In this document: positions 12,605-32,711 of the stretch, piece after piece
How positions within the stretch are numbered: the first letter of the stretch is position 1
Layout: each line of letters starts with the position of its first letter
DNA from: Anaerolineae bacterium
GTDB taxonomy: Bacteria > Chloroflexota > Anaerolineae > Aggregatilineales > J027
Assembly: GCA_008933735.1 (NCBI GenBank)
Contig: WBUL01000005.1
Coordinates: 183,754 to 247,753, forward strand
DNA length: 64,000 bases
Direction of reading: 5' to 3'
Translations under genes and position numbers: made by a program
The notes under the pieces: model-generated
Seen by the model: the letters and a program-made list of their open reading frames with translations, nothing else
The model's database searches: none
Told to the model about the DNA's origin: nothing

Positions 12605-12686
12605 TGCTTATCTCCTTTCCAAACAAAACGCCCTGCTCCCGCGAAAGTGATACGGCAAGAGCAAGGCGCATATTGTACAATGCTTC

Positions 12687-13368: not shown

Positions 13369-13390
13369 TCTCGTCAGTTGGGGTAGAAAA

Positions 13391-15921: not shown

Positions 15922-16001
15922 TCAACCTTCTACATTGTATAGAGACCAGTTTGAGAGAAGTTTATCATACAAATGAGCGGTTGGCTTGGGTAATGGCTCG
16001 C

Positions 16002-16072
16002 AAAAAATATAGGGCTGGCGACTGCTCACCAGCCACAGAAATAAAAACGACTGTCCGTTTCACGCTGGACAG
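16002..16072 (-). terminator. Two tandem rho-independent terminators after the sigma-like gene
   Basis: Minus strand: CTGTCC-agcgtgaaac-GGACAG followed by tcgTTTTTaTTTc (overlaps the stop codon), then GGCTGG-tgagcagtcg-CCAGCC followed by ctataTTTTTT. Confidence 0.55.
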
Positions 16073-17535: not shown

Positions 17536-19545
17536 ATGCACGAAGTGAATCTACTCGTCAATATCACGGTAGCACTGACGGTAGCTTTCTGCGGTGGTCT
17601 GGTCGCACGTCGGCTGGGAATGCCAACCATTGTAGGATATCTCGTTGCCGGGGTGCTGATCGGCCCTTTTACCCCTGGCTTTGTCGGCGACACCGAAGCC
17701 ATCAGCGAGTTAGCCGAAATCGGTGTCATTTTCCTGATGTTCGGTGTCGGCATTCATTTTTCGTTTAGAGATTTGTGGTCGGTTCGAGATATTGCAATTC
17801 CAGGCGCAGTCTTACAAATGGTCCTAGCAACCGGAGCAGGGCTTTTGCTGAGTCAGTTCTGGGGATGGTCAATTGGCTCAGGACTCGTCCTGGGTCTGGC
17901 AATTTCGATTGCCAGTACAGTCGTGCTGCTGCGTGGATTGATGGATCAGGGCCTACTCAATACCACGCATGGGCGTGTTGCTGTTGGTTGGCTAATCTTA
18001 GAGGATATTGCAACTGTGCTTATTTTGGTACTCCTTCCAGCATTATCCCCCGCCTCACAAGAGAATACGGCAAATACAATCCTGCCAGCCATTGTAAAGG
18101 CCGGTCTTTTCATTGGCGTTATGGTCTTTGCAGGGGTACGTGTTGTACCCTGGATTTTGCTGCGTATTGCGAAGATTGAGTCACGCGAGTTGTTCATCCT
18201 GACCGTCCTGGTCATTGCGCTTGGCACCGCGCTGGCTGCCGCTGAGTTTTTCGGTGTTTCCCTTGCCCTTGGCGCTTTTTTAGCCGGCGTTGTTGTCAGT
18301 GAATCAGCACTTGGTCATCAGGCAGGCGCTGAGGTTCTTCCATTTCAACAAATCTTCGCTGTCCTCTTTTTTGTATCCGTCGGAATGCTGGTCAATCCAG
18401 CCTATCTGCTTGCCAATGCTGGTCCGGTTCTTGTGCTTACCGGGTTCATCGTTCTTGGTAAATCCCTCGTTACCGCCCTGTTGGGTTTCATTTTCCCGCA
18501 CCCGGCCCGCACGATATTGGTCGTTGCTGCTGGATTGAGCCAGATTGGAGAGTTCTCATTCATTGTTGGTCGAGCGGGATTAGCGTTAAATCTCCTCAAT
18601 CAAGAACAGTATTCGCTCATCCTGGCTGGCGCTTTGCTGTCTATTATGGTCAATCCCCTAATGTTTCGGGCTGTTCCCCATATCGAAAAGCTGCTACAGC
18701 GTGCGCCGTCCATCTGGAGGCGGCTCAATCACCAGCGGGAGATCAATTTAGCCGTTGCCGAAAAACTCGCTGGACACGTCGTAGTCCTGGGTTACGGGCG
18801 AGTCGGCCAGTACATTGTGAACGTGCTTGGACATCTCAATATCCCCCGTCTTGTCGTTGAGATGGATGCAGCAAAGGTGGCGGAGTTAGAGCGTGCAGAT
18901 GTCCCGGTACTGATGGGCGATGCAGCGAATTCTGAGCTGCTCAATCATGCCGGTTTAGAACACGCGCGAGCGCTGGTCGTGACACTCCCTGAAGAGGCAG
19001 CGGCGGAGATTGTCGTTTCAACAGTCCACAAACTAAGACCAACTCTACCGATTATTGTGCGAGCGTCAACGCAATCCGGTGTCAGTCGCCTGGTTCAACT
19101 GGGCGCTCACGATGTCATTCATCCTGAACTGGAAGGCGGGTTGGAAATCATGCGCCATACCCTCCTCAGATTGAACTTTGCGCCTAATGAAGTTCAATGG
19201 TATGCCGATGCTGTCCGCCGGGATCAGTATGACTCTTCCATTTCAACAGTTGAAGAGCATCGGGTGCTGGATCAAATGATAACGGCTGCTAAGGGAATGG
19301 AAATTGCGTGGCTGCCGATTCCCGAAGAAAGCCCTATCGTTGGGAAGACGATTGCCGAAGCGAATTTGCGCGCGCTCACCGGCGCTTCCATTGTGGCTAT
19401 GCTTCGGGAAGGGCATCTGATAGCGAATCCCAAATCGGCTACTCAGTTTCATGGAGGCGACATTGTAGGCGTGATTGGCGAAAGCATTCAGGTACAGCAG
19501 GCGAGAGGAGTGATTTTGTCAGGAGAGCTGGAGGACATTTTGTAA
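17536..19545 (+). CDS. Cation:proton antiporter, CPA2/KefB-KefC type with TrkA-N and TrkA-C (RCK) domains
   Basis: About 12 TM helices, then the Rossmann motif HVVVLGYGRVGQ and a C-terminal RCK_C-like segment. The ORF opens at 17422, but ATG 17536 has a GGAGG 6 nt upstream. Confidence 0.85.
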   Translation: MHEVNLLVNITVALTVAFCGGLVARRLGMPTIVGYLVAGVLIGPFTPGFVGDTEAISELAEIGVIFLMFGVGIHFSFRDLWSVRDIAIPGAVLQMVLATGAGLLLSQFWGWSIGSGLVLGLAISIASTVVLLRGLMDQGLLNTTHGRVAVGWLILEDIATVLILVLLPALSPASQENTANTILPAIVKAGLFIGVMVFAGVRVVPWILLRIAKIESRELFILTVLVIALGTALAAAEFFGVSLALGAFLAGVVVSESALGHQAGAEVLPFQQIFAVLFFVSVGMLVNPAYLLANAGPVLVLTGFIVLGKSLVTALLGFIFPHPARTILVVAAGLSQIGEFSFIVGRAGLALNLLNQEQYSLILAGALLSIMVNPLMFRAVPHIEKLLQRAPSIWRRLNHQREINLAVAEKLAGHVVVLGYGRVGQYIVNVLGHLNIPRLVVEMDAAKVAELERADVPVLMGDAANSELLNHAGLEHARALVVTLPEEAAAEIVVSTVHKLRPTLPIIVRASTQSGVSRLVQLGAHDVIHPELEGGLEIMRHTLLRLNFAPNEVQWYADAVRRDQYDSSISTVEEHRVLDQMITAAKGMEIAWLPIPEESPIVGKTIAEANLRALTGASIVAMLREGHLIANPKSATQFHGGDIVGVIGESIQVQQARGVILSGELEDIL

Positions 19546-19689
19546 ACTGAATAGGGATGTAATCTTTCAGATCGTGTGTCTAAAATGTGAGAACTATATG
19601 AATTGTCTCGATAAGCGATGCCTCAAGCTGCTGGCATAAAATCGCCATTTTTGAGCGAGCTGTCGTTTAAGATTACGGAGATTGAAATT

Positions 19690-20373
19690 GTGCGAATACT
19701 TCTCGTAGAAGACGAAGAGGGGATTGGAAAGTTTATCTGCCAGGGACTCCGTGAAGCCGGCCACCGAGTCGATTGGGCTAAGGATGGCGAGAAAGGGTTC
19801 GATTATGCGCTTGACGCGGAGTATGACGTGATCGTGTTAGACCTTATGCTGCCCAAAATGGATGGACTTCAACTGCTGCAAGAACTCCGGCAGCGCGCAG
19901 TTAAGACCCCCATTCTCGTCTTAACGGCTCGTGATGCCGTTGAAGATCGGGTGAAAGGTCTGAATACCGGCGCAGATGATTATCTCACCAAGCCGTTCGA
20001 CTTTTCTGAACTGCTGGCGCGGATTAATGCGCTACTCCGCCGCCCGCCGCTTCAGACTACGAATATTCTGCAAGTCGCCGATTTGGAAATGGATACCACG
20101 AGGCGAATTGTGCGACGTGGGGGACAGATTTTGGAGTTAAGCCAGCGTGAGTTCATGTTATTGGAATATCTGATGCGAAACGCCGGGCATGTACTGACGC
20201 GAACTCAAATTGGTGAGCGTGTGTGGGGCTTTGACTTCTACAACGAATCCAACGCGGTAGACGTTTACATAGGCTATCTGCGGCGAAAAGTTGATAAAAA
20301 CGCCGCGATTCCGCTCATCAAAACTATTCGAGGGGTAGGTTTTTGCCTGAGCGGTGATGAAAATGATGACTAA
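19690..20373 (+). CDS. OmpR-family response regulator
   Basis: Receiver domain RILLVEDEE ... VIVLDLMLPKMDG ... LTARD ... K. Winged-helix C-terminus ...TIRGVGF. GTG 19690 with a GGAG upstream is preferred over ATG 19618. Confidence 0.9.
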   Translation: MRILLVEDEEGIGKFICQGLREAGHRVDWAKDGEKGFDYALDAEYDVIVLDLMLPKMDGLQLLQELRQRAVKTPILVLTARDAVEDRVKGLNTGADDYLTKPFDFSELLARINALLRRPPLQTTNILQVADLEMDTTRRIVRRGGQILELSQREFMLLEYLMRNAGHVLTRTQIGERVWGFDFYNESNAVDVYIGYLRRKVDKNAAIPLIKTIRGVGFCLSGDENDD

Positions 20374-21754
20374 ACTTGCCACTATTCGACTGCGCCTGAC
20401 CCTGTGGTACACGTTTTTCCTGGCTCTAACCGTATTGGGCTTTAGTTTTTATCTTCACTTTGAACTACAAGATAGTTTGTCTATACAGATAGACGAAGGG
20501 CTTCAAGTTGCTGCTTCTCATCTGCTTGTGGATGTGAACGATACTGTAAATCCCCCTGCTCTGCATCCCATGTCTGACCAGGCTGAAGATTATTTGGTGC
20601 AGTCCAGTTTTGCTCTGAGATTAGTCGAGGCAGACGGGACAGTTGCCGCTGATGTGGGCGGGTTCCCCTCCTTAGCGTTCTCGCCACCTGCTGCGGCCAG
20701 CTTCGAAACCGTCGTTATCAACAACATACCCTGGCGTATTTACACGCAGCAGATTGAAACGCAGACAACACGGTTTGATGTCTGGTTGCAAATGGGGCAA
20801 TCGCTCAATATCGTCCAGGATACGCAGAGCAACTTGTTGAGGCTCATTCTGTTTGGTCTGCCCGTGACTCTCATCATTGCGACGTTGGGCGGCATTTTCA
20901 CAGCAAATCGGGCGCTGCATCCGGTGGATACCATTACACGCACCGTCCAATCCATCAACGCAACCGATATGTCTAAGCGTATCCTTTATCACGGTCCAAA
21001 CGATGAGTTGGGGCGCTTGACCGAAACCCTCAATTCGATGCTGGATCGAATTCAGTCAGCGTTTGATGCTGAAAGACGTTTCACCGCCGATGCTTCTCAT
21101 GAATTACGCACACCGCTCACGGCGATCAAGGGGCAGGTTGATGTTACCCTTACTCGAAAGCGCACGCCAGACGAGTATGAGAAAGCATTCCATCATATTC
21201 AACGTGAGACAGATCGCCTGATTCGTTTGGCAAACGATTTGCTGTTCCTGGCACGCTTAGACAGTACCCCACAGCGTTGGAAAGCTGAACAGGTCAACTT
21301 GAGCGACCTGTTGGAAGCGGTTGTCGAGCAGGTAAGGGTGGTAGCCGAAGACAAGTCCATCCACCTGACTGCTGATATCCCACCGCATGTATTTGTGCAA
21401 GGCATCGCTGACCATTTAATACGACTTTTTCTCAACCTCATGGATAACGCGGTCAAGTTTACCCCCATAGGCGGGAATATCTCGATAACCGTTAACCAAT
21501 TGCCAACTGAGGTTCAGGTTCGGGTAAAAGATAATGGTCCTGGCATCGCACCTGAGCATGTGCCGCATCTATTTGAACGGTTTTACCGCGTAGAAAATGA
21601 TCGGACCTACAAGGGTGGAGGTGCCGGGCTTGGTCTGGCAATTGCCGATCAAATCGCGCGAGGACATGAAGGCGCGATTAGCGTAGACAGCATCCCCACC
21701 AAGGGAACTTCCTTCATCGTTCGTTTGCCCCTGTCACTCACGCCTGAAAAATAA
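20354..21754 (+). CDS. Sensor histidine kinase (two TM helices, periplasmic loop, HAMP, HisKA, HATPase_c)
   Basis: H-box ADASHELRTPLT, N-box NLMDNAVKFT, G1 DNGPGI and G2 GGAGLGLAI. Overlaps the regulator gene by 20 nt. Confidence 0.9.
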   Translation: MMKMMTKLATIRLRLTLWYTFFLALTVLGFSFYLHFELQDSLSIQIDEGLQVAASHLLVDVNDTVNPPALHPMSDQAEDYLVQSSFALRLVEADGTVAADVGGFPSLAFSPPAAASFETVVINNIPWRIYTQQIETQTTRFDVWLQMGQSLNIVQDTQSNLLRLILFGLPVTLIIATLGGIFTANRALHPVDTITRTVQSINATDMSKRILYHGPNDELGRLTETLNSMLDRIQSAFDAERRFTADASHELRTPLTAIKGQVDVTLTRKRTPDEYEKAFHHIQRETDRLIRLANDLLFLARLDSTPQRWKAEQVNLSDLLEAVVEQVRVVAEDKSIHLTADIPPHVFVQGIADHLIRLFLNLMDNAVKFTPIGGNISITVNQLPTEVQVRVKDNGPGIAPEHVPHLFERFYRVENDRTYKGGGAGLGLAIADQIARGHEGAISVDSIPTKGTSFIVRLPLSLTPEK

Positions 21755-22081
21755 GAACGTTCTTAGGGTTATCTTATCCTTTCCACAATCTTCTCCGATA
21801 AGCTCAAGCATAGTCTGAGGGATGAAGACTGTTGGTTTTGTGTGCCTTTTTTCAGCCTAACGAATAGCAACCGGGAGGAGGAGATAGATTATACAGTCCA
21901 TCGTCATCAAAGTGACGTATAAGCATTTTCCTGACTACTCCTCGAATCCATTCACATTCAACAGCCTGAACAACGGCTTAAAAGCAAAACTTTTATCTTC
22001 GTCTGAAGAACTGTCAAACGATAGAACCTACCGATTCTTGGACAGCCTATAGATGGCTGTTCGGGTCATGGGAGTTTTTCA

Positions 22082-22396
22082 GTGCCTGAGTTCAGCCTTA
22101 AGGTGCCGCTCACGCTTGTCCTGCTCAGTGCGGCACTGTGGACATTTGGAATCGCTTACTGGCGGCCCACATCGCTTCACCAGAACCGTGTAAAGCGTTT
22201 GTTTACAACGATTCTTGAAGGATTAGTTTGTGCTGGAATATGGAGTGCAGTTCTCCTGCTTGGTGAAAGGCTGTCAACAGGAGCAGCCTTAATTAACGGA
22301 TGTCTTGCTGGGTTGGCATGGACAATCACAGCGTTTTACAGCCGGAGCCGATACAAAACTACCCTCCAGCAATCCCTGGAGTCCGAGGAGGGTTAG
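22082..22396 (+). CDS. Small membrane protein (3-4 TM helices), hypothetical
   Basis: GTG start with a GGGAG upstream. Hydrophobic segments are visible. The stop abuts the next start (TAGATG). Confidence 0.4.
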   Translation: MPEFSLKVPLTLVLLSAALWTFGIAYWRPTSLHQNRVKRLFTTILEGLVCAGIWSAVLLLGERLSTGAALINGCLAGLAWTITAFYSRSRYKTTLQQSLESEEG

Positions 22397-22885
22397 ATGC
22401 GATTATCTTCAGTTATTTTTATGGTATTGGAAGCATATTTGCTCGCTTTCCTCACCCTCAAAACGTATGTGGTCTTAACGGCGGTTCCTGGGCTGCCAAA
22501 CACAATTCTGGAAATATTCCTAAACTGCGTCAGTTTCTATATCCATCTCAACCTGTTGCTGAGGCGATTATGGGCATGGTGGGTCGTTTTCGCGCTCAAC
22601 GTCATGGGTTTGGCGCTGGCATTTTCGCTGCTCATATCACGCGGCGAACCGTTTCCCTGGGGAATGGTGCTTGAAAGCGCTTTTATGCTTGTGCTGCTTT
22701 ACGCTAATCGCCATATGTATCTTAAGCCGCTGCGATCCAGACCTTTCGCAATATCTACAAGTTCCAGAAAAACATTGGAACCGCATTATGGCGGCTTCGG
22801 CCCATCCCATACCCTCAAAAGTAGTGAAGTGAATCATCCCCTTCATAATGGGAACCAACCGGATAACGAGGAGATGCCTACATGA
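22397..22885 (+). CDS. Membrane protein (about 4 TM helices), hypothetical
   Basis: 162 aa, hydrophobic N-terminal two thirds. The stop overlaps the antiporter start (ATGA). Confidence 0.45.
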   Translation: MRLSSVIFMVLEAYLLAFLTLKTYVVLTAVPGLPNTILEIFLNCVSFYIHLNLLLRRLWAWWVVFALNVMGLALAFSLLISRGEPFPWGMVLESAFMLVLLYANRHMYLKPLRSRPFAISTSSRKTLEPHYGGFGPSHTLKSSEVNHPLHNGNQPDNEEMPT

Positions 22886-24141
22886 CAGAAACCGTACAAT
22901 TCTTTCTTGCGCTGGGAGTCACAATCGGTTTTGCGAAGCTGATGGGCTATCTCACGTATCGGCTGCAACAACCAGCAGTGTTGGGGGAACTCCTGGCGGG
23001 TGTGATCATCGGTCCCACCGTGATCAATCTTCTCGGTATGCCCGCATTGTTTCCAGACGGGCACAGCGTCGAACACACCTTGATTGAAGTCGCCGAAGTG
23101 GGTGTCCTGCTGCTGATGTTCATGGCGGGAATGGAAGTTGATCTCGATAGTATGTTGAAAGTCGGACGACCTGCCTTGCTTGCGGGGCTGCTCGGTGTTT
23201 TCGTTCCGTTGGTAGTCATTACCCCTGTCGTCATGCTGTTCAGTTACCCCTTTGAAAAGGCACTATTCGTGGGCATTCTGTTAGCTTCGATGAGCACGAG
23301 CATCAGCGCCCAGGTCATGTTGGAATTGGGCGTTTTGAAACGACGAGAAGGTTTGACACTACTGGGTGCGGCGCTCGTAGATGATGCCATAGTTATTCTT
23401 CTGCTTTCTCTTTTCCTTGCCATCAATCCGGGTGGAATCGTCGCTGTTGCTGAAAGCCGGTCAGTAGTTGAAGTGCTGCTGCGGATTGCTGGCTTTCTGG
23501 TCGTTGGATTTTCGATAAGCTGGGTGGCGCTTCCTCGCCTGGCGAACTTGATTAATCGTCTCCCAATTGCCGAAGGAACGCTGATGTTTGCGATTGTCGC
23601 AACGCTGCTTCTCAGCTTCGCGGCGGAGTTTTTTGGCGGTATAGCAGGTATCACGGGCGCTTTCATTGCCGGGGTATGCATCAGTCGTGCGCGACGGGGT
23701 GTCGTTGAAAAAATAGAGCGCGGCATTCACGGGGTCAATTATGGTTTGTTAGTGCCACTGTTTTTTGTGAGCATTGGGCTTAGAGCGAACCTGCGTCTGC
23801 TGACAGCAGACATTTTACCTTTCGCCTTGACCATGACCATTCTGGCAATTCTCACCAAAATCGTAGGGGCAGGCGGTGGAAGTAAGCTGGGTGGTTTCGA
23901 TTGGAGAAGTGCTTCTCGTGTCGGACTAGGCATGATCAGCCGCGGTGAGGTAGGCTTAATTATTGCATCAATTGGTGTGGGTTTCGGAATTTTGCAGGCG
24001 GAAGTTTTCACAACGGCTGTATTTGTCGTTCTCGTGACCACGATTATCACGCCGCCTCTTGTGCGTTGGTCGTTCCGCGAGAGTACAACTCCTGCCACAC
24101 CAAACATTGAAGCTGCGCAGCAGGTTGGTCAAGAAGGATAG
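22882..24141 (+). CDS. Cation:proton antiporter (CPA2 family, transmembrane domain only)
   Basis: 419 aa polytopic protein. The N-terminus LALGVTIGFAKLMGYLTYRLQQPAVLGELLAGVIIGP is typical of Na_H_Exchanger family proteins. GAGGAG SD. Confidence 0.85.
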   Translation: MTETVQFFLALGVTIGFAKLMGYLTYRLQQPAVLGELLAGVIIGPTVINLLGMPALFPDGHSVEHTLIEVAEVGVLLLMFMAGMEVDLDSMLKVGRPALLAGLLGVFVPLVVITPVVMLFSYPFEKALFVGILLASMSTSISAQVMLELGVLKRREGLTLLGAALVDDAIVILLLSLFLAINPGGIVAVAESRSVVEVLLRIAGFLVVGFSISWVALPRLANLINRLPIAEGTLMFAIVATLLLSFAAEFFGGIAGITGAFIAGVCISRARRGVVEKIERGIHGVNYGLLVPLFFVSIGLRANLRLLTADILPFALTMTILAILTKIVGAGGGSKLGGFDWRSASRVGLGMISRGEVGLIIASIGVGFGILQAEVFTTAVFVVLVTTIITPPLVRWSFRESTTPATPNIEAAQQVGQEG

Positions 24142-24146
24142 CTAAA

Positions 24147-24503
24147 ATGTACATGATTATGTTTGTTTCAAAAGATGTCGAACAAGCATCCGAGATGCTG
24201 GATGTGTGGGTGAAAGCCGGCGTTGCGGGCGTTACCATCCTCGAAAGTGCAGGGATGCAGCAGGCGATGGGAAGTGGAATTCGGGCAGATGTGGGGATCG
24301 TTTTTTCTCTCAAAACGATGCTGCGAGCGCAGGAAATTCACCATCGCACGCTTTTTTCAGCCATCAAAGATGAGGAAACACTCAATCGCGTGATTGAAGC
24401 CTCCACCAAACAGGTGGGGGACTGGACACGGCCTGATGTAGGCGTGTTGTTCGTCTGGCCGTTAACGCAAGCGTATGGGTTGGACAAAAAGCTAAATTCA
24501 TAG
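24147..24503 (+). CDS. P-II-like (ferredoxin-like beta-alpha-beta x2) small protein, hypothetical
   Basis: 118 aa starting 5 nt after the antiporter stop. The hydrophobic/amphipathic pattern is YMIMFVS - EQASEMLDVWVKAG - GVTILESAGM - long Gly/charged loop - RTLFSAIKD - ETLNRVIEAS - GVLFVWPL. This matches a P-II-type fold with a T-loop-like insert. Inference only. Confidence 0.4.
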   Translation: MYMIMFVSKDVEQASEMLDVWVKAGVAGVTILESAGMQQAMGSGIRADVGIVFSLKTMLRAQEIHHRTLFSAIKDEETLNRVIEASTKQVGDWTRPDVGVLFVWPLTQAYGLDKKLNS

Positions 24504-24545
24504 GAAAGATGAATCATCTCGTAAGCAGGCGTTCTGGCGATATTC

Positions 24546-24986
24546 ATGGACACAATTCTGGTTCAAGCGAGTGACTACCCCTGGACAATGGAGGCACTGC
24601 ACCTCGCCTGTGGTTTGGCGCGCCGCCGGGGTACGCACATTACGCTCTTAAGGTTAATTCCGGTCCAACCGCACTGGCTTGGCACTGATTTTGGTTTGGC
24701 TATAGTGTCGTTTCACGAATGGAAAAACTTGAGCGAGTATCACGCGACGGCTGAGGACTATGGTGTAGAGCTTGTCTTTCAACCTATGCAGTACATTAGT
24801 TTTCATGACGCAGTTATTCAAGCCGTGTCGTTTCTGAAAGCTGCTATAGCTTTTGTAGATATACCGTCGAGCAGCTTTTCCTGGTGGGACAGATTTCGGA
24901 TTCGCGGTTTAGAACGGCGATTGGCGAAAGTGAACTGCCACCTCCAGACACTCCATACGATCCCTAGACTAATGCTGCCGTCGTAA
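24546..24986 (+). CDS. Universal-stress-protein-like domain protein (degenerate)
   Basis: 146 aa. ILVQASDYPWTMEALHLACGLARRRGTHITLLRLIP resembles the N-terminal strand-helix-strand of USP domains. Confidence 0.35.
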   Translation: MDTILVQASDYPWTMEALHLACGLARRRGTHITLLRLIPVQPHWLGTDFGLAIVSFHEWKNLSEYHATAEDYGVELVFQPMQYISFHDAVIQAVSFLKAAIAFVDIPSSSFSWWDRFRIRGLERRLAKVNCHLQTLHTIPRLMLPS

Positions 24987-25020
24987 AAATTCCATAAGTT
25001 AGTTCTTCGCGGAGAAGTCT

Positions 25021-25569
25021 ATGGTGTATCGTGGCATTTGCTTGCTTTCAGTGATCGTGCTCACCATGATCCTGGCATCCTGTGATACATCCGATGCGCC
25101 GTTATCGACCAGACCTCTGGAATCGGTTGTTAGCAGAGACCTTCACATTGTAATGGGGCAGACCATCTATGTGCCTGCCTATTCAGAGATTTTCTACGGC
25201 ACCTCGGTGAGAACGGTGCCGCTCGCAGTCACCCTCGCCATACACAACACAGATGTTGACTCGGCGATTATCATTCAAGCGGTTCGATATTATGATACGG
25301 ACGGTAATTTGGTGCGGGAGTACGTCACTGAACCTGTGGAGATTCCGCCATTGGCAACCACTGGATTTATTGTCGAAAGTCAAGATACAAGTGGTGGATG
25401 GGGTGCGAATTTCATTGTCGAATGGGGAGCGGAAGAACCGGTTTATGAACCGATTGTTGAAGCCATTATGATTAGCACAGAAGGAAATGGGGTGTCGATG
25501 ATTAGTCCAGGGCGCATCGTTTCCGAGATCCAAGCAAGCTCGGAGGCATCTGCGACCAGCGCCAATTAG
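25021..25569 (+). CDS. DUF3124 family lipoprotein
   Basis: Lipobox LASC. GQTIYVPAYSEIFYG...LAIHNTD...IIIQAVRYYDTDGNLVREY...PPLATTGFIVESQDTSGGWGANFIVEW matches my memory of DUF3124. Confidence 0.65.
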   Translation: MVYRGICLLSVIVLTMILASCDTSDAPLSTRPLESVVSRDLHIVMGQTIYVPAYSEIFYGTSVRTVPLAVTLAIHNTDVDSAIIIQAVRYYDTDGNLVREYVTEPVEIPPLATTGFIVESQDTSGGWGANFIVEWGAEEPVYEPIVEAIMISTEGNGVSMISPGRIVSEIQASSEASATSAN

Positions 25570-25678
25570 TATCGGACGAGACAAGTCTCAGCATACGGCG
25601 GTAAAAGCCATTTAGCCGATGAGATGCTAATCTAGTTTCGACAAACGAAAATATCCGTCTGTAGATGACATCGCTTCT

Positions 25679-25956
25679 GAACCAGTGTCACAATCGTCAC
25701 AGCTACATATTCAGTCTGTTGATGCGTGCTACGGATACCCTGTGTGATTCTGTATTTTGTAGCCTGAATGCGGTTCTGTGACTGGTTCGCTGGTTCATCT
25801 GTGACAGTGATGATTGTAGAGTCTGCTGTAGGAAAAAGAGAGTGCCTCTCTCAAGTGAACCAGTGTCACACCTGAAACAGGCACTTCTATGAGCTTTCAC
25901 TGCAATGATTCGCATTGCGATGCTGTCACTGAACTACCGTCACAGTCGTCACAGCC
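25679..25956. repeat. Iteron field (GTCACA core; GAACCAGTGTCACA and CGTCACAG units) - candidate replication origin
   Basis: GAACCAGTGTCACA at 25679-25692 and 25857-25870. CGTCACAG at 25695-25702, 25938-25945 and 25947-25954. Inverted copies CTGTGAC at 25776-25782 and 25799-25805, next to GGTTC (the complement of GAACC). A variant GTCACT at 25925-25930. Confidence 0.6.
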
Positions 25957-28854
25957 CAGAAAATCGGCCTTCAACTGCCACAAACGGGTAGGTATCCCCC
26001 GGATGCGGCGCTGCACGGTCAGGTTGTTTGTGCCGGGGATCAACCAGCCATCTTCCTTCAACTGCGCGCCAATCGCAGGTGTATTGAACTTGAGAGGTTG
26101 CACCCGCAGGACAGCGCGGTGAGCGACATCGGGCAGCAGATACACATAGCGCTCGTCCAGATAACCGACGATGGTGGTTCCCGGGCGTGGTTCTTCAGGT
26201 TCACGCATATCTCGTGCCAGCATGAGTTCGCCACTGGCAAGTAGCTGACCCAGCGTGTCAATGAATACCTGCCCGGCACGTTCCTGCTGCACCGCTTTGA
26301 TTGTCTCTACGATGCTATCCTGCCACGAAGGTAATACCTCGTCGCAGTCCAGTTCCGCCGTAAATCGCCGGAGCATCTGGTAAGTTGTGACCAGCACCGC
26401 CCAGTTCTGCACCATGCGTCCAGTGTTCGCCTGTCGTCCCAACTTGCTTGTGAGGCTGTCTCGGTAGCCCTTTACATTCGACTCAAAACGGCTTGCCAGT
26501 TCCTTCGCCAGTGTTCCCTCATCCGCCTGCGCCGCAATCCACTGGATAAATTTCGCGGTGAAACCGGGGAGTTGGTCGCGCACCGCTTCCAGTTTCGCCA
26601 GCGCCGCCCCACCCGGATCGCGCTTCTCCCAGGGTGGAATTTCCAGCACCAACATGCGCGACAGGATTGAGACTTCCCCCTCAAGCGTGGTTTCGCCAGT
26701 GGACAGTAGCAGTCCCCGACAGGGGCGCTCGTGTCGCAGTTTGGTTTCGCGGGTTAGCCTGCCACGCCCCATCCCACGCGAATAGCTCTGTAAAAAACGG
26801 GTGAAAGTGCGCTCGTCGGCATAGATGGTTTTGTAATCATCAACCCAATACAAGGTATCTGCCAGCGCATAGCCCAGCGCCTCGACAGTGTTGATGGTAT
26901 CGCCCCACTGACCCGGTGGCGTGTCGCGGGTGAACTTCCCGTAGAAACTGGTCAACAGTGAGGCGATTTCCGACTTGCCGCTCCCTGATGTCCCGACCAG
27001 ATGCATTGCAGGACGAGTTGCGGCGGCGGGAAAGAAGCGCTGCACGACGGGGAGCATAGCGAACGCGATGAGCGACGATGCAAGGTGATTGGGAAGTGTG
27101 GCGATGGCTGCCTTAAACGCTTCCAGGCTCTCTTGCCAGCCCGCGCCGCACAAGCGGTAGTCGCGCAGGCGGGTTTCAAGCTCGACCTCTGGTGGTTCGA
27201 TGATCTGTCCATCCGCATGGACGCTCATTTCCGGTGAAACATACACCCATTTGCCATTAATCTCCGTCCAGCCCATAAAGCGGTAGGTTTTGCGACGTGG
27301 GTATGTACCTGACAATGCCAGAATCGCGGGAGCAAGGTGACGGATCATCCCGGCGCGGACGGTGAAGTTTTCCCCCGCGTGTCCAGCGATAAAACGCTGC
27401 AAGGCGTTGGGATCACCAAACAGTTCACTCGGCACATGCAGCGTCAGCGTTTCCTCGCCACAGGTCAGTTCCAGCACCGTCAGATGTTCGACCTGCCCAT
27501 CATCGTCCATACGAGAAGTACGCTCCAGTATCCACCCAACCCATCCCGCGACGGTCTGGCGGCTTGTACCGCGCTCAGTCTGTTTTTCAAACACCATACA
27601 CCCATCGGCGATGAGATACTGTTCTGTCGCGGATGCGGCAGCAAAGATGGCACGGTCTAATTCGCGCTTCGCCTCTCGATACAGCCGGTCAAGGTCAGCG
27701 ATTTTTAGCCCATCGCCGCACAACACCTTGAGGCGCTGGCGTTCGGCTGCCCACTCGACAGGATTGAGGTGAGCGCAGGCAGTCACAGCCTTGCTAATCT
27801 GCTCCATCGTCGGGTGTTCACGTTCTGTCTCTGGCTGACCAAAGCGGCTGACGAGCTGCTCCACCTGCTGGCGTGCCTGTTCTCTGGGTGCGGCGATAGG
27901 TTCACGCGCTAAGCGGCTGAAGGCACTCCTGATCGTTGCCAGTGCCTCGCGTTCACTGCTGCCGCTGGCGAGGTGGCGCGGGATGAGTTCGCGTTCCGCA
28001 TCCGTCTGGCTGTAGCCCGCATCGCGCAGTTGACAGGCTGCCGCGAACAGTTCAGTGTTGCGACTGCCGTTCGCAGCGCCGGATGCCAGATAGCTTTCGG
28101 TGCGGGGTGGCAGTGGGTGGTGTCCGTTTCCATTCAGCGTCACTACCTTCAAGCTATCGAAGCTGGGTTGAGCGGGTTGGCTCTCTAACCAGACGAAAGT
28201 ATTCAGCGGATAACGCCGTTCCGGGTGACTTTCAACTACATTGACCACCACACCGCCGCGCTCTGGCTTGGTATTCACCGAATCCGGCAGACGCATGATG
28301 CCTGCGACAGTTTTGACGTATTCGGGATCACCCCCTAATGCTGCGAACAAGCCGCGCAGAATGCCTGCGATTTTCTGTCTATCCTCATCACCCTGAAGAT
28401 GGAACGGCTGATCCAGCAGCCAGTAACCATGCCAGCCGCCCCCACTGTCCAGGATGAACGATGGCACGGGGTCGAAGTCTCTGAGTCGCGTTAAGTTCTG
28501 GTCGCGCTGATGGGTATTGTTGCCACAATCAACATCGACCCATAATGCCGTAACGAGCGCGGCAGCTTCCGCCTTGCCCTGCTTCAACTTTCGCAAACAG
28601 GGGGCGAAGTACACGCCATACCCCTCGTGATTGAGTGTCTCCGCCTGCTTAAGCGCGGCTGACAGTTCGGCCTTCTTGCCCATCCGTCCCCAGAGTGAAC
28701 GCACCTCGCCGGTGGTTGGGTGAATGCAGCGCAGTTCGAGGTAGAGGTTATCCGGGCTTCCTTTATAGAGCGCATTCAGAAATTCGCGTCTCCCAAGATC
28801 GGGCGTGTCTAAGGTATCTGTCTTGTTCACAGTTCCATTCTGTGTCATACTCAT
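25897..28854 (-). CDS. Replication protein: AEP/RepB'-type primase(-polymerase) fused to a P-loop (DUF927/SF3-like) helicase
   Basis: 985 aa. N-terminal YGVYFAPC...ALWVDVDCG...ILDSGGGWHGYWLL...RLPDSVNTK (primase catalytic motifs). Central Walker A VGTSGSGKSE and Walker B-like YWVDDY. Confidence 0.8.
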   Translation of the reverse strand: MSMTQNGTVNKTDTLDTPDLGRREFLNALYKGSPDNLYLELRCIHPTTGEVRSLWGRMGKKAELSAALKQAETLNHEGYGVYFAPCLRKLKQGKAEAAALVTALWVDVDCGNNTHQRDQNLTRLRDFDPVPSFILDSGGGWHGYWLLDQPFHLQGDEDRQKIAGILRGLFAALGGDPEYVKTVAGIMRLPDSVNTKPERGGVVVNVVESHPERRYPLNTFVWLESQPAQPSFDSLKVVTLNGNGHHPLPPRTESYLASGAANGSRNTELFAAACQLRDAGYSQTDAERELIPRHLASGSSEREALATIRSAFSRLAREPIAAPREQARQQVEQLVSRFGQPETEREHPTMEQISKAVTACAHLNPVEWAAERQRLKVLCGDGLKIADLDRLYREAKRELDRAIFAAASATEQYLIADGCMVFEKQTERGTSRQTVAGWVGWILERTSRMDDDGQVEHLTVLELTCGEETLTLHVPSELFGDPNALQRFIAGHAGENFTVRAGMIRHLAPAILALSGTYPRRKTYRFMGWTEINGKWVYVSPEMSVHADGQIIEPPEVELETRLRDYRLCGAGWQESLEAFKAAIATLPNHLASSLIAFAMLPVVQRFFPAAATRPAMHLVGTSGSGKSEIASLLTSFYGKFTRDTPPGQWGDTINTVEALGYALADTLYWVDDYKTIYADERTFTRFLQSYSRGMGRGRLTRETKLRHERPCRGLLLSTGETTLEGEVSILSRMLVLEIPPWEKRDPGGAALAKLEAVRDQLPGFTAKFIQWIAAQADEGTLAKELASRFESNVKGYRDSLTSKLGRQANTGRMVQNWAVLVTTYQMLRRFTAELDCDEVLPSWQDSIVETIKAVQQERAGQVFIDTLGQLLASGELMLARDMREPEEPRPGTTIVGYLDERYVYLLPDVAHRAVLRVQPLKFNTPAIGAQLKEDGWLIPGTNNLTVQRRIRGIPTRLWQLKADFLGCDDCDGSSVTASQCESLQ

Positions 28855-28939: not shown

Positions 28940-29953
28940 CTAAAGTTCAAAATCGGGTGATATATCCCTTGTTGGTTGCCCATATCCCCCTATTTCCTCG
29001 ATCAATGCCGTGCGTTGTTCAGCATTCATCCCATTGAGAAATCCTGCCAGTTCTTTGAGTTTGTCCATGTCGCCGTTCATCGCCTGTGCCAGCACCTGCG
29101 CGAAAAAGGCTGCCTGTTCATGCGGTAGCCCTGCCGCCAGCGGACGAAATTCCAACCGGAGTGGATCCGAGTCGTCCTCAGTGTGTGTTGGGTAGTAGCG
29201 GTAAAAGCCAACAGCAGTTTGCTGCGCATCGGTGCGCCGCGTGCCACACCAGACATTCCAGCTTTCACCTTTGTCGTCGATCATGACACCATGCGGTTCG
29301 TCCGCGACGATCTGGCGCTCCTGCTCACGAACAGCGGCTAACTCGTCGTAGCGCTGCTCCCAGTCGGGACCGACATAGCGTTCCATCTGCGCGACCATTG
29401 TCTGCTCGGTCACATCATGCAGCATCTCGATGTGATTGACTTTGCGATTGCGGCTGAAGAACAGCGGCACGCGCTGCCCATGCTCCTCGTCATACACGGT
29501 CCCCGGTAAGACAATGTGTGTATGCGGGTCGTGTAATCCGGGCGCTTGTGGATCGCCCGTCAATCTGTGATGGAGGACATATGAAAATTCGACCCCGGTA
29601 TCCAGCCCACGCTCTTCAAAGAACCCGTTGACTGTGCTTTCAGTCAACTCGCGGACAAACTGCTCACGCTCCTCCGGCGCGACCATTGCCATCAAATCTG
29701 GATTGGGGTTACAGACCAGGCTGAAGGTCAGCACATGCTCGCTTTTCAGGTCGTCACAGTGATGGGCGATTTCAGCTACCGAACCGCCCATGCCGTGATC
29801 CACCCAGCGTTCCCGTCCGGTAACATGCCGCGCTGCTTCATCCCGACTTTCACGATACGTCAGATACCGCAAGAGATTCTTCGACTGTTTCGCGCCATCG
29901 TCAGAAGGTTTCTTGTACTGCACATTGGCGACACACATCTGCTTTCTGTCCAT
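28940..29953 (-). CDS. MOBQ-like relaxase (MobA/VirD2 superfamily)
   Basis: The N-terminus VQYKKPSDDGAKQSKNLLRYLTYRE parallels the RSF1010 MobA start (IYHLTAK...ADYIQRE, from memory). Histidine triad GLHDPHTHIVLPG. Confidence 0.6.
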   Translation of the reverse strand: MDRKQMCVANVQYKKPSDDGAKQSKNLLRYLTYRESRDEAARHVTGRERWVDHGMGGSVAEIAHHCDDLKSEHVLTFSLVCNPNPDLMAMVAPEEREQFVRELTESTVNGFFEERGLDTGVEFSYVLHHRLTGDPQAPGLHDPHTHIVLPGTVYDEEHGQRVPLFFSRNRKVNHIEMLHDVTEQTMVAQMERYVGPDWEQRYDELAAVREQERQIVADEPHGVMIDDKGESWNVWCGTRRTDAQQTAVGFYRYYPTHTEDDSDPLRLEFRPLAAGLPHEQAAFFAQVLAQAMNGDMDKLKELAGFLNGMNAEQRTALIEEIGGYGQPTRDISPDFEL

Positions 29954-30256
29954 CTAGCCCTCGCGTTTGCGTGTCACCCGCTCGATAAAGCCACTGAGCA
30001 TGGTCGTCAGCGTTTCGACTTTGGTATCCAGCGCGTCCACCTTCGACTCGATGCCTTTAGCAATCGCCCGGCGCGACCCTGGCAGGTCTTCCTGCGATGC
30101 GAGATAGTAGTTCACCGCATCCCGCAGCAGGTCATTCTTGCTGACGAAATTCCCGACGCGGCTGCGAACATTCCGCAGTTCTTCCAACCGCCGCATCTGG
30201 TCGGGAGTCAGATTGACGGTCATGCGTTCGCTGTAGGGATTGGGTTTCTTCTTCAC
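29954..30256 (-). CDS. Ribbon-helix-helix protein (relaxosome accessory/CopG-like)
   Basis: 100 aa. RMTVNLTPDQMRRLEELRNV...NDLLRDAVNYYL is an RHH pattern. The stop abuts the relaxase start, and the start overlaps the HU-like stop (4 nt). Confidence 0.6.
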   Translation of the reverse strand: MKKKPNPYSERMTVNLTPDQMRRLEELRNVRSRVGNFVSKNDLLRDAVNYYLASQEDLPGSRRAIAKGIESKVDALDTKVETLTTMLSGFIERVTRKREG

Positions 30257-30549
30257 TCCAATGCTCCTTCCTTGATATAGGCATTCAACACGAACTGACG
30301 AAACTTCCCTGTGGGACGAAAACGCACATATACCCGCTTGACGGTTCGCTGTCCTACCGCGCCGCCACTGCGGACGGTCTGCACCTCAACGGCCAGTTTG
30401 CCCAGATCGGCAACCGTCACGGTCTCACCCGGCTGTGCCAGTTCATCAAGCCACAGTTCTGTCATGACTTCCAAGACCTCCGCCACGTCGCGCCGTTTCA
30501 AGCGCGGCAGGCGTTTGCTGATTTCGGTGACTGTTTGACGGTGATTCAT
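30253..30549 (-). CDS. HU/IHF-like DNA-bending protein
   Basis: Using the internal ATG at 30549: MNHRQTVTEISKRLPRLKRRDVAEVLEVMTELWLDELAQPGETVTVADLGKLAVEVQ...VRFRPTGKFRQFV follows the HU/IHF helix-helix-beta-arm layout. The upstream 58 codons of the listed ORF look like read-through noise. Confidence 0.7.
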   Translation of the reverse strand: MNHRQTVTEISKRLPRLKRRDVAEVLEVMTELWLDELAQPGETVTVADLGKLAVEVQTVRSGGAVGQRTVKRVYVRFRPTGKFRQFVLNAYIKEGALE

Positions 30550-30551
30550 CT

Positions 30552-30935
30552 TTACGCTTCTCCTGTCTTGCATTCGTTCCCATCTGGCTGTAAAGCGCGA
30601 ATGAAAACTAAAATCGGCTGAACGGGCGTGATGCGAATTGGGAACGCATCCGGCTCGCGGGTGCGTTCGGTGGGCGCGGCAAACCGCGTCCACGAGTGCG
30701 GCGGCATCTCTGCACCGCCGCACTCATGCAGGGGCGACAGCCGCTGCATCCAGCCCTCCGGCGCATGAGGAGCCAGCGTATTTAGCTGGCTTGCGGCGGG
30801 GAGAAGGTCAATTTGGATACCTACTCCCCATCCCCGCCGCGCGAAGTCGCAGCGCCTCGACGCTGCGACGGGCATGGCTGTGCCATGCACTGCTTTTTGC
30901 TGTGCTGTCCTACACGATGGGATGATCTGCTCCAT
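30552..30935 (-). CDS. Uncertain 127 aa ORF filling the ParR-like/HU-like gap (may instead be a non-coding oriT region)
   Basis: The ATG at 30935 is preceded by GGAGG at a 6 nt spacing, right after the upstream stop. The stop lies 2 nt before the HU-like ATG. The product is R/A/P/C-rich with no motif, and the DNA is packed with perfect inverted repeats. Confidence 0.3.
   Translation of the reverse strand: MEQIIPSCRTAQQKAVHGTAMPVAASRRCDFARRGWGVGIQIDLLPAASQLNTLAPHAPEGWMQRLSPLHECGGAEMPPHSWTRFAAPTERTREPDAFPIRITPVQPILVFIRALQPDGNECKTGEA
30642..30888. other. Cluster of GC-rich inverted repeats - candidate oriT
   Basis: IRs: GAACGCA/TGCGTTC (30642-48 / 30662-68); GAGTGCGGCGG/CCGCCGCACTC (30694-704 / 30715-25, 11 bp); ATGCAG/CTGCAT (30726-31 / 30744-49); GTCGCAGCG/CGCTGCGAC (30846-54 / 30861-69, 9 bp); GCATGGC/GCCATGC (30872-78 / 30882-88). 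Confidence 0.35.
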
Positions 30936-30946
30936 ACACAACCTCC

Positions 30947-31369
30947 TCACCACTGGGAACGTTTCATCCGCTGCGTCCGGCGGTCACTATCGTTGTCTGA
31001 CAGAGCGGGTTCAGTGGACTCTAGGGCAATGCCATTCGCTGGCGCTCGTGCTTCAGGCTGTATCGCAACCTGGGCTGCACCATTGGCTGCCACATGCTGC
31101 ACTAACCGTTCCAAATAGCCGGGCATCTCATTCAGCGCGTCTCGTATCCATAAGGTATCCTGTCTGACTTCCAGCAGTTCGGGGATGGTCAGCAGTTTGC
31201 TCCGGCGCGGTTGCTTGCCCAGATACCCCCGAATCAGATCACGTAACGCATCGCTGCGTTCGCCCTCATCAATCCCTTCCCACCAGTCCAGGATGTCGCT
31301 GTCAGTGTCCTCGAACACCTTGAACGTAATCATCCGATAGCGGCGTTTGCTTGTCTTGCGCTTTGCCAT
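30947..31369 (-). CDS. ParR-like RHH partition adaptor (hypothetical)
   Basis: 140 aa directly downstream of the ParM-like gene. A basic N-terminus is followed by RMITFKVFEDTDSDILDWWEGI...RSDALRDLIRGYL (strand plus two helices). Confidence 0.45.
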   Translation of the reverse strand: MAKRKTSKRRYRMITFKVFEDTDSDILDWWEGIDEGERSDALRDLIRGYLGKQPRRSKLLTIPELLEVRQDTLWIRDALNEMPGYLERLVQHVAANGAAQVAIQPEARAPANGIALESTEPALSDNDSDRRTQRMKRSQW

Positions 31370-31448
31370 ACTTATCTCTCCTCTGAGTGGGTCTTACCCG
31401 TATCACCCATTGGGCTGACCAGTAAGACCCGCCTCGATGCTGAACTCC

Positions 31449-32513
31449 TCACTTCCGGGCAGCGAAATGGGCGTAGTGCAGATAACCTCTGGCGTTCGCC
31501 ATCTGCGCGTCCGGCACCAGCTTCGTCTGCGGGTAGGCTTCGACTACCTGCTCATATACCAGTTCCGCGCCACCGCCAGACAGGTAAATCACATCGACGG
31601 TTGTGCCGCGCTGCCACTTTTCCGACAGCAGATTCAGTGTCGCGCTGCGGAGCGGAGCAAGGGCTTCTTCCACCTCATGGCTGTAATCCACTGGCTTGCC
31701 GCTGGCGGTGAAAATGCCTGTCCTCAAAACCTGCTCGACAATCCGGTGGGGCATCTTCTCGCGGTAGTCCCGTTCCAGCATGGCGGCGATCCGCTCCTGC
31801 GCGGTATAAACCCCACTTTCCACGCTGCCGCTTTCGGCATCCACAAAGTCGCCGTCATCGTCCAAAATGATGTCTACGGTGTACGTGCCAACATCGACCA
31901 CGCCGGTTCGCATGTAGGTGTGATAAACGTTGATTTCCCCCTGCTCGGTGAGCATCATGGCATACGCACTGCCGTAAGGCTGCGGCATGACCATCACTTC
32001 GGTGACATTGGCGATGACCTCGGTGGAATCAGTTTTGATGAGATGCTGCCCCTGAAGCGCCTGCTTGAGTCCACCCGCATCCCGCATGTGATCAACAGGC
32101 AACCCACTGCACAATCTGAGATGGATGACATCCCCGCCCGACATCCCCTGTGCCAGCTTGCCAATCGCCGCTTTCGCCAGCCGCAGCCGGAAGGTGTTGC
32201 CCATCGTCTTTTCGTTGGCGGTGCGCCCACGCAGCCGGAGTAATTCACCGGGCGGAAGCTGCGCCAGCGCCAGATCGCCGACAAACCAGGTCGAGCCGTC
32301 TTCATCTGTGAGCTGGTCGCCGGGGTATTTGGCTGCCAGTGCCTCCTGCTGGAACTTGATTTCGCGGGCATGACCCGCAACCGACGGAAAAGCGATTGCG
32401 GTCTGATCCGTCACGACTTTGGTGACACCGTAACCGATGTCCAAGCCCACCGTGAAGATGCCGCCCGATGTAAGAGATGCTTCGGATACCTGCTGATTTT
32501 TACGCCTGTTCAT
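31449..32513 (-). CDS. ParM/StbA-like actin-fold plasmid segregation ATPase
   Basis: Phosphate-1 motif VGLDIGYGVTKVV, phosphate-2 motif VVDVGTYTVDI and adenosine motif VIYLSGGGAE. ATG 32513 has a GGAGG 7-8 nt upstream (the ORF opens at 32546). Confidence 0.8.
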   Translation of the reverse strand: MNRRKNQQVSEASLTSGGIFTVGLDIGYGVTKVVTDQTAIAFPSVAGHAREIKFQQEALAAKYPGDQLTDEDGSTWFVGDLALAQLPPGELLRLRGRTANEKTMGNTFRLRLAKAAIGKLAQGMSGGDVIHLRLCSGLPVDHMRDAGGLKQALQGQHLIKTDSTEVIANVTEVMVMPQPYGSAYAMMLTEQGEINVYHTYMRTGVVDVGTYTVDIILDDDGDFVDAESGSVESGVYTAQERIAAMLERDYREKMPHRIVEQVLRTGIFTASGKPVDYSHEVEEALAPLRSATLNLLSEKWQRGTTVDVIYLSGGGAELVYEQVVEAYPQTKLVPDAQMANARGYLHYAHFAARK

Positions 32514-32527
32514 TCGATCTGCCTCCA

Positions 32528-32566
32528 TAAAACAAAAACAGCCCATCTACTCCTCATCGGTAGATG
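32528..32566 (-). terminator. Hairpin plus T-run immediately upstream of the ParM-like start
   Basis: Minus strand: CATCTAC-cgatgagga-GTAGATG, then ggcTGTTTTTGTTTT. It lies about 150 nt downstream of the PD40 gene stop and ends about 2 nt upstream of the ParM SD. Confidence 0.5.
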
Positions 32567-32614
32567 CGGCTGAAGAACCCGCAAATTCAATTGGGGAACA
32601 ACGGTTCAGGGCAA

Positions 32615-32651
32615 CTGCGACTTCGCCGGGGTCAAAACTCTGCGATTTCGC
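32615..32651. repeat. Direct repeat CTGCGA(C/T)TTCGC x2 upstream of the ParM-like gene (parC-like candidate)
   Basis: CTGCGACTTCGC at 32615-32626 and CTGCGATTTCGC at 32640-32651, with a 25 bp period. Each copy is internally near-palindromic (GCGA..TCGC). Confidence 0.3.
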
Positions 32652-32711
32652 ATGAGTATCACCTGTCAGATGACATTTACGGATGTGTGAAGAAAAGCAT
32701 CTCGTGCTCTG

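Follow-up and report, generated by a model that had tools for sequence, protein, structure and literature searches.

We describe a field of short repeats at positions 25679–25953 of a 64,000-nt stretch (hereafter, the window) of contig WBUL01000005.1, from an Anaerolineae bacterium of the phylum Chloroflexota. The field overlaps the 3′ end of rep (25897–28854, − strand), which encodes a 985-aa primase-helicase, and it probably serves as the vegetative origin of replication for an element, integrated in an Anaerolineae chromosome, that resembles a plasmid or an integrative and conjugative element (ICE). From homology and co-variation, we infer a Rep/iteron origin module of the type known from Staphylococcus aureus pathogenicity islands (SaPIs), here in a Chloroflexota integrative element. 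An original prediction, made from the sequence alone, had proposed a candidate origin with the signature of theta-type plasmids and of SaPI-like islands. The origin itself is supported by a conserved layout, by co-variation with the C-terminal domain of Rep and by a fold shared with SaPIbov1 Rep and with Cch of the staphylococcal cassette chromosome mec (SCCmec), but its type is that of the SaPIs and not that of theta plasmids.

On reading the sequence and searching both strands for the pattern, we found seven exact copies of GTCACA/TGTGAC between 25687 and 25953 (267 bp). Five lie on the + strand, starting at 25687, 25696, 25865, 25939 and 25948, and two are inverted (− strand, 25777 and 25800). 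Reading also revealed the near-copies GTCACT (25925–25930) and TCACAC (~25744), so the count of at least eight copies given originally comes down to seven exact ones, with the eighth and ninth being near-copies only. Likewise, the last three copies do lie within the rep open reading frame, as had been claimed, but only two of them are exact. The remaining features of the prediction were found as described: a perfect 14-bp direct repeat, GAACCAGTGTCACA, at 25679–25692 and 25857–25870; three CGTCACAG units at 25695, 25938 and 25947; and two inverted copies adjoining GGTTC within 25771–25805.

The window as a whole contains 31 copies of GTCACA against a shuffle expectation of 32.5, and 7 of these 31 fall within the 267 bp. 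With self-overlapping hexamers excluded from the cluster scan statistic, no other hexamer in the window clusters as strongly as GTCACA, and across 200 Markov-3 simulated windows no hexamer had more than six clustered copies (0/200 with seven). The k-mer comparison with simulated controls that had been suggested as a check therefore shows enrichment; chance clustering is ruled out, and the cluster of repeats is genuine. TGGTTCA/TGTTTCA, which reads GAACCA/TGAAACA on the + strand, recurs as a second word at 25679–25684, 25783–25796, 25857–25862 and 25873–25879. It takes the slots of TGTGAC in the same 9/8-bp register, both in the subclade of the window and in four further loci (L021, L024, L025 and L033). 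These variants occupy repeat positions in register and so account for the 14-bp repeat of the original prediction; the word may be a weak iteron or the site of another protein. Scans of the window for tRNAs and Rfam families returned no matches, which leaves no RNA-gene explanation, and no near-identical match to the field or the module was found among E. coli genomes or phage records.

The repeats of the window fall into four clusters, which we designate A to D with increasing distance from rep. Cluster A lies inside the 3′ end of rep and consists of GTCACA at 25939–25944 and 25948–25953 with the near-copy at 25925–25930. Cluster B (GTCACA at 25865–25870, flanked in register by GAACCA at 25857–25862 and TGAAACA at 25873–25879) lies inside the hairpin of the predicted intrinsic terminator of rep (25829–25888, − strand), which is composed of a stem-loop of approximately −28 kcal/mol (25837–25888) followed by a U-run (25829–25836). 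Cluster C (25771–25805) is inverted relative to the other three and contains TGTGAC at 25777–25782 and 25800–25805, with TGGTTC variants in the repeat register at 25783–25788 and 25791–25796. Cluster D (25679–25701), the farthest from rep, comprises a GAACCA variant (25679–25684) and GTCACA at 25687–25692 and 25696–25701, again in the 9/8-bp register; homology with related elements begins at 25677, at this outermost repeat. Clusters C and D are separated by a spacer (25702–25770; 55% A+T, with 75 bp from exact repeat to exact repeat) whose center holds an A-tract and a GGGTATCC box at 25733–25759, where the + strand reads GGATACCC...TATTTTG. We propose this spacer, which has oppositely oriented repeats on its two sides, as the melting region, and its central A-tract/G4 element may be a melting site, a priming site or a host-factor site.

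Homologues of Rep with up to 90% identity come from metagenome-assembled genomes (MAGs) of Anaerolineae/Aggregatilineales, often on contigs of 0.6–2 Mb and with several copies per genome. We compared 66 homologous loci with downstream sequence (numbered with the prefix L), scoring the field as the interval from stop−70 to stop+300, and used 660 windows from the same loci as controls. Some hexamer occurs at least six times in 79% of the fields, compared to 0.3% of the control windows. The comparison of homologues that the original prediction had called for thus revealed repeat fields at the same position in relatives, with a lineage-specific sequence and with Rep tails that match the repeats.

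The geometry of the field is shared by representatives of every main repeat class, in the order A(+), B(+), C(−), D(+). Relative to the stop codon of rep, A occupies the last codons, B lies at about +37 to +55, the inverted C at about +108 to +125 and D at about +212 to +229. Each cluster has at most three 6-bp repeats at 9/8-bp spacing, and relatives reach 13 exact copies, and 12 in the 4 × 3 layout. The C–D spacer measures 75–116 bp across loci, with 44–65% A+T, and in representatives of each of the five classes, but not at all loci, its centre carries an A5–7 tract followed 3–6 nt later by GGGG(T/A) or its complement (a G4/C4 box). A hairpin with a trailing T-run encloses cluster B, and its arms vary in sequence between loci yet stay complementary (AAAGAGCCTGTGA/TCACAGGCTCTTT in L034; AGTGCCT/AGGCACT in the window), a compensatory pattern. 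The hairpin of L056 has a 6-nt loop with no repeats inside.

Across the 66 loci, the commonest hexamer of a field is lineage-specific and equals the codons of the local Rep tail. Fields of the TGTGAC class (3–13 copies) accompany CD tails (CDDCD...), those of the TGTGAA class (9–13 copies) CE tails (CEGCETCE...), those of the TGAGAC class (4–10 copies) VET tails (VETVEPPET...), and those with GGTGAC or with GGAGAC/GTGGAG (4–11 copies) GD tails (GDSGDSGD...). The word is a different one in L059 (TGTGGGGA) and in L074 (GTAGGGACA). In the window, rep ends in the acidic tail GCDDCDGSSVTASQCESLQ (aa 967–985; 25900–25956, − strand), which is predicted to be disordered (predicted local distance difference test score, pLDDT, <50), and the two exact copies and one near-copy of cluster A are translated as CDDCD...SVT. 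Where close relatives end in ...GGSVTA and a TAG stop, the window has TCG, which adds nine residues (SQCESLQ...; 25897–25926).

Codon usage in the tails is skewed toward the repeat. Cys is encoded by TGT in 96% of cases in tails compared to 38% in the gene body, Asp by GAC in 77–97% compared to 40–52%, Val by GTT in 73% compared to 17% and Gly by GGT in 80% compared to 21%. In homologues that lack the tail and end in ...ADFIEM, cluster A is retained, either spanning the stop codon or beyond it. Together, the codon skew and the persistence of cluster A in tail-less homologues show that the constraint acts on the DNA and not on the peptide, and the repeats thus dictate the Rep tail across the family. 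The earlier observation that the odd tail is encoded by the repeats, with origin and coding sequence overlapping, was therefore correct and extends to the family as a whole.

We measured the association of each protein region with repeat class as nearest-neighbor concordance, for which chance is 0.25, scoring the C-terminal region of Rep without its tail. The primase domain of Rep showed no association (0.17), the middle regions reached 0.45–0.62 and the C-terminal domain (aa 860–962) reached 0.83. Of the proteins encoded nearby, the 337-aa, ribbon-helix-helix (RHH), HU-like and 296-aa proteins stayed at chance (0.22–0.30; RHH, 0.30), and the 140-aa protein was not significant (0.35). The ParM-like protein was significantly associated with class, scoring 0.55 against 0.24 (1 of 500 permutations reached its score), even though the genes between parM and rep have no association. 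Residues 949–950, in the wing of the C-terminal domain, are RR in 17/17 TGTGAC loci, [KR]S in 6/6 TGTGAA loci and KR in 8/8 TGAGAC loci; loci of the GGTGAC class have [MILK]R and those with GGAGAC have [IM]R. R949–R950 of the window fits its TGTGAC class. Repeat class thus tracks the winged-helix C-terminal domain, especially residues 949–950, and not the primase domain or the 337-aa, RHH, HU-like, 140-aa and 296-aa neighbors.

Compared to TGAGAC-class elements by blastn, the window is ~82% identical at the nt level across the primase domain and upstream genes but only ~69% identical in the C-terminal half of rep, with a recombination breakpoint inside the gene at ~27280–27690 (Rep aa ~330–390). 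The primase domain and the genes for the 337-aa, RHH and HU-like proteins shuffle independently of the helicase/C-terminal half. One possible account of the association of ParM with repeat class is that ParM and the helicase form a backbone with a mobile primase-to-HU cassette. Three loci (L035, L041 and L057) have a C-terminal backbone like that of the TGAGAC (VET) class, yet carry a QRR wing together with TGTGAC repeats.

Rep is composed of an archaeo-eukaryotic primase (AEP) domain of the RepB′/PrimPol-like type (aa ~20–225), a helical PriCT-like region, a DUF927 MCM-like helicase, a C-terminal winged helix and the tail. In a Pfam scan of Rep, the only match was DUF927 (E = 3e-5, above the gathering score), and a PHROG scan gave primase matches. 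The Walker A motif is an invariant GTSGSGKS (G621–S628). AlphaFold2 models, with pLDDT 76 for full-length Rep and 77 for its C-terminal domain, predict, in order, an AEP-like primase, a helical region, a β-rich N-terminal helicase domain, a P-loop core and a C-terminal helix-turn-helix with a β-hairpin wing, the winged helix being modeled at aa 860–966 (25957–26277, − strand). When these models were compared to the PDB using Foldseek, SaPIbov1 Rep (8tch) was the top match for both (E = 4e-12 with full-length Rep, 7e-5 with its C-terminal domain alone). The next matches of the whole protein were SCCmec Cch (5dgk, E = 8e-9), S-2L PrimPol (6zp9) and RepB′ primase (3h20, 3h25). The C-terminal-domain model also resembles TcpK, a winged-helix protein that binds the origin of transfer (oriT), which ranked below SaPIbov1 Rep. 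A sequence-profile search of the PDB with the Rep family alignment returned no match, and the kinship to SaPIbov1 Rep therefore rests on the fold and on DUF927. We propose that the winged helix is the iteron reader, as its co-variation with the repeats suggests.

SaPI Reps are self-loading helicases, and the DUF927-containing Cch is related to SaPIbov1 Rep (PMC7581432, PMC9371898). Their C-terminal winged helix recognizes 6–12 penta- or hexanucleotide iterons directly downstream of rep, and SaPI origins have an AT-rich center with iterons in opposite directions on either side (PMC9371898, PMC7581432). The window has the same components: seven exact hexanucleotide repeats plus near-copies directly downstream of rep, a center with at least two opposed iterons on each side (C(−) and D(+)) and a modest A+T excess, a DUF927 helicase core with its Walker A motif and, in the model, a C-terminal winged-helix fold.

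Based on this analogy, we hypothesize that the 985-aa protein would be a self-loading initiator, as SaPI Rep is. Its winged-helix domain would read the 6-bp repeats (consensus cTGTGAC[a/g]), which form four clusters, each with no more than three repeats spaced 9/8 bp apart, and Rep hexamers would form on the oppositely oriented clusters C and D and melt the A-tract spacer between them. The DUF927 (MCM-like) helicase would unwind the DNA, the fused RepB′/PrimPol-like N-terminal domain would prime and a host polymerase would extend. Clusters A and B, next to rep, would provide a second, separable Rep-binding module, with A overprinted on the last codons and B held within the terminator hairpin. 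Binding, melting and replication by Rep at the field are thus predicted from the SaPI precedent.

The field can be split. A strict criterion for motif clusters within ±10 kb gave one field per element. A looser search found six loci (L081, L082, L013, L035, L041 and L069) in which A and B remain beside rep and C–spacer–D lies 0.7–9.4 kb off; the two parts lie at L081:5640–5740 and 12427–12545 and at L082:11090–11190 and 20520–20650. With the two parts found apart in six loci, the field consists of two separable modules, A+B and C–D. In L081 and L082, what splits the field is a type I restriction-modification (RM) system and a type III-A CRISPR-Cas locus that is complete. Comparison of these loci points to an insertion hotspot between cluster C and the terminator of rep. 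The window differs in that its two modules adjoin each other, with the cargo lying beyond D.

Beside or within the field, each element carries different cargo (window, 10601–25676; L007:13200–22815; L081:5864–12423; L082:11368–20464). Most of it is defense-related, including XamI RM, an SNF2 helicase with an Eco57I-like methylase, type I RM with a CoiA nuclease and Csm CRISPR-Cas. In contrast, the cargo next to the field of the window, ~8.4 kb of low-GC DNA (~49%) between the field and the 296-aa gene (17300–25676, + strand), encodes two Na+/H+ exchangers, a two-component system and a DUF3124 protein.

The window holds an integrated plasmid-like or ICE-like element that extends from ~10.6 to ~34 kb of the window, a reading based on the ParM module, a serine recombinase, the chromosomal flank, homologues on long contigs and a type IV coupling protein in the relative L007. 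Upstream of rep is a module that is syntenic in most related loci (28940–32546, − strand), composed of the genes for the 337-aa protein (28940–29953), the RHH protein (29954–30256), the HU-like protein (30253–30723), the 140-aa protein (30947–31369) and the ParM-like actin (31449–32546), all on the − strand. The 166-bp gap upstream of parM contains two GCGAA(A/G)TCGCAG repeats 25 bp apart (32600–32660), a possible parC. A gene for a 498-aa protein (32712–34208) has no homologue in any related locus, and window genes past ~38 kb look chromosomal. On the other side of the field, a large serine recombinase (10601–12604), a methylase with the XamI endonuclease (13391–15921) and the conserved 296-aa protein (16060–16950), all encoded on the − strand, make the segment 10601–17281 probably a further part of the same element. 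The 296-aa gene lies beyond the field in 22 related loci, in many of them 1.1–1.5 kb away, and in L007 the interval is only ~0.9 kb; in many loci, the 337-aa and 296-aa proteins are kept beside the replication module. None of the 337-, 296-, 498- and 140-aa proteins was assigned to a family by those of the Pfam, NCBIfam and PHROG scans in which it was included. The close relative L007 carries, besides the coupling protein, MerB and helicase/methylase cargo.

We considered whether the element is a phage satellite, a SaPI or other phage-inducible chromosomal island, and rejected this. No genes for phage structure, packaging or interference were detected in the scans, the PHROG matches being restricted to replication, partition, DNA-binding and integrase families, and an IMG/VR scan found no relatives. 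The surroundings are instead those of ParM, a serine integrase and a type IV coupling protein. The element thus carries what is probably a SaPI-like origin but is not itself a SaPI. A classical iteron origin of a theta plasmid was also ruled out. The repeats are 6 bp long at 9-bp spacing, no DnaA box with one mismatch or fewer is present in 25.5–26.0 kb and the Pfam scan of Rep found no Rep_3 domain, so the theta-plasmid model does not apply.

Several observations weigh against an active SaPI-type origin read by the C-terminal domain of Rep. No circular contigs, as judged by terminal overlaps, are present among the related loci, and the element is integrated in every long contig; autonomous replication may therefore be transient or have been lost. 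Exact repeats fill just 7 of the 12 possible positions in the window, where TGGTTCA/TGTTTCA variants also stand in the register. A+T enrichment is modest (52–58% in the field compared to 38–44% in the gene), and GC skew is uninformative here because genes converge on the field. With regard to the co-variation, the C-terminal domain is the coding DNA nearest the repeats, so linkage may contribute. Concordance climbs gradually along rep, and ParM, 6 kb away, is also associated (0.55). The three loci with a VET-like backbone and a QRR wing could be recombinants and not cases of functional coupling.

Among the alternatives, the one that we take most seriously, while still judging it unlikely, is that the repeats are Rep-binding sites with a regulatory role (autoregulation or termination of rep at A and B, or handcuffing for copy-number control) and that the true origin lies elsewhere in the element. 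The position of cluster B within the terminator hairpin, the separability of A+B from C–D and the modest A+T richness would fit such a role. However, C–spacer–D has the inverted-iteron, A-tract layout of SaPI origins (PMC9371898), and no further motif cluster exists within ±10 kb. Repeats 3′ of rep cannot serve as an operator of its promoter, and regulation and initiation can coexist. Clusters A and B, as one part of the field, may have a purely regulatory function. At the other extreme, we regard as vanishingly improbable that the field is a chance cluster, or a low-complexity repeat of the protein whose downstream copies are decayed duplications of the gene end. The tail is indeed repetitive and acidic, but chance is excluded by the simulations and control windows, the inverted cluster C is impossible as a gene-end duplication, and the codon bias and the retention of cluster A in tail-less homologues indicate constraint at the DNA level.

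Two further alternatives assign the field to other machinery of the element. A ParM-like gene in the same conserved module raises the possibility that the field is the parC centromere of that system, bound by the 140-aa or the RHH protein as a ParR-like adaptor. parC sites are arrays of short repeats, which the field would fit, and the class association of ParM (1/500 permutations) points the same way. Characterized parC sites, however, sit directly upstream of parM, whereas the field lies 5.5 kb downstream of it, past four other genes at the far end of the operon, and different repeats, GCGAA(A/G)TCGCAG, occupy the upstream position. Neither adaptor candidate has a significant class association (140-aa, 0.35; RHH, 0.30), the strongest belonging to the Rep C-terminal domain, and we therefore consider a centromere very improbable. 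We hold an oriT, or a recombination or attachment site at the border of the element, to be just as poor a candidate. Homology between elements does start exactly at the outermost repeat (25677), relatives carry a type IV coupling protein and the C-terminal-domain model resembles TcpK. Yet the 296-aa gene lies beyond the field in 22 loci, which makes the field internal to the element and its border a cargo hotspot. The recombinase of the element is a large serine integrase, and such enzymes use simple att sites without arm repeats; no relaxase domain adjoins the field in our scans, and the best match of the C-terminal domain is SaPIbov1 Rep rather than TcpK.

The SaPI-type origin thus remains our preferred reading, and the comparative set allows some speculation on how it diversified. 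Seven MAGs (JANRJX, JAIUNI, JACKCH, JAVJSU, JAWKPB, JBGAGR and JALHNT; loci within L002–L071) carry two to four elements each, nearly always of different classes. Only 1 of 15 co-resident pairs shares a class, compared to the 25% expected (P = 0.086; the pairs are non-independent and the bins may be composite), which is suggestive only, though compatible with diversification driven by incompatibility. A joint reading, which we put forward tentatively and consider doubtful as a whole, would combine three parts: a wing/iteron code of at least five classes at residues 949–950, diversified by incompatibility; a bipartite origin with a hotspot for defense cargo; and a class-specific acidic tail acting in cis as a DNA mimic that regulates the winged helix. 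The code would pair RR with TGTGAC, [KR]S with TGTGAA, KR with TGAGAC and hydrophobic-R with GG[T/A]GAC, repeats that differ from each other by one or two bases.

The element would be the first replicon described for the class Anaerolineae; a limited literature search for such elements in this class found none. To our knowledge, Anaerolineae lack plasmid vectors, and the 3.3-kb cassette of rep and origin, for which several compatibility classes are predicted, offers a concrete basis for building one. The system would extend the self-loading helicase paradigm of SaPI and SCCmec to a distant phylum and to an ICE- or plasmid-like carrier, and it offers dozens of natural Rep/iteron pairs for dissecting how a winged helix reads DNA, as well as a clear case of a cis-acting DNA element that dictates the C-terminal sequence of a protein.

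Among known systems, some parallels are partial. Initiator-bound repeats beside the initiator gene are also a feature of theta plasmids (Rep_3/RepA, π, TrfA) and of IncQ RSF1010, and the N-terminal domain of Rep resembles the RSF1010 RepB′ primase (3h20, 3h25). Classical theta-plasmid iterons are 17–22 bp long at ~22-bp spacing, however, compared to 6 bp at 9 bp in the window, where the initiator is itself a helicase and neither a Rep_3 domain nor a DnaA box is found. The α protein of satellite phage P4 fuses a primase to a helicase and binds its origin through a C-terminal winged helix, and short repeats (TGTTCACC) occupy two separated cis regions, ori and crr, with ori not at the 3′ end of the α gene. 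This arrangement resembles the split A+B and C–D modules of six relatives, those of the window being adjacent, but the helicase and primase families of α differ from those of the window Rep. SaPI5 PriRep5 and SCCmec Cch2 likewise combine a primase and an initiator helicase in one polypeptide or operon, and their C-terminal domain binds short direct repeats 3′ of the gene (PMC7581432, PMC9371898). Their helicases belong to the D5/Primase_Cterm family and not to DUF927 (PMC7581432), and SCCmec Cch2 has only three AAGTG repeats, unlike the field of the window.

The closest parallel is with SaPIbov1 Rep and SCCmec Cch, which share with the window Rep the DUF927 helicase family and the best-matching folds (8tch and 5dgk). 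Like SaPI modules, the window has a C-terminal winged helix, hexanucleotide repeats 3′ of rep that are opposed around an A/T-rich center, and what may be Rep/origin specificity groups. It differs in its host phylum, in a sequence similarity below the detection of PDB profiles and in its carrier, whose genes include those for ParM and a serine integrase, joined in relatives by one for a type IV coupling protein. Relative to the known SaPI modules, what is new is the fusion of a RepB′/PrimPol-like primase to the DUF927 helicase, absent from SaPIbov1 Rep and Cch; the 4 × 3 layout at 9/8-bp spacing; a first repeat cluster overprinted on the coding sequence, where it specifies the tail; the existence of at least five repeat classes; and a field of two modules that cargo can split by 0.7–9.4 kb.

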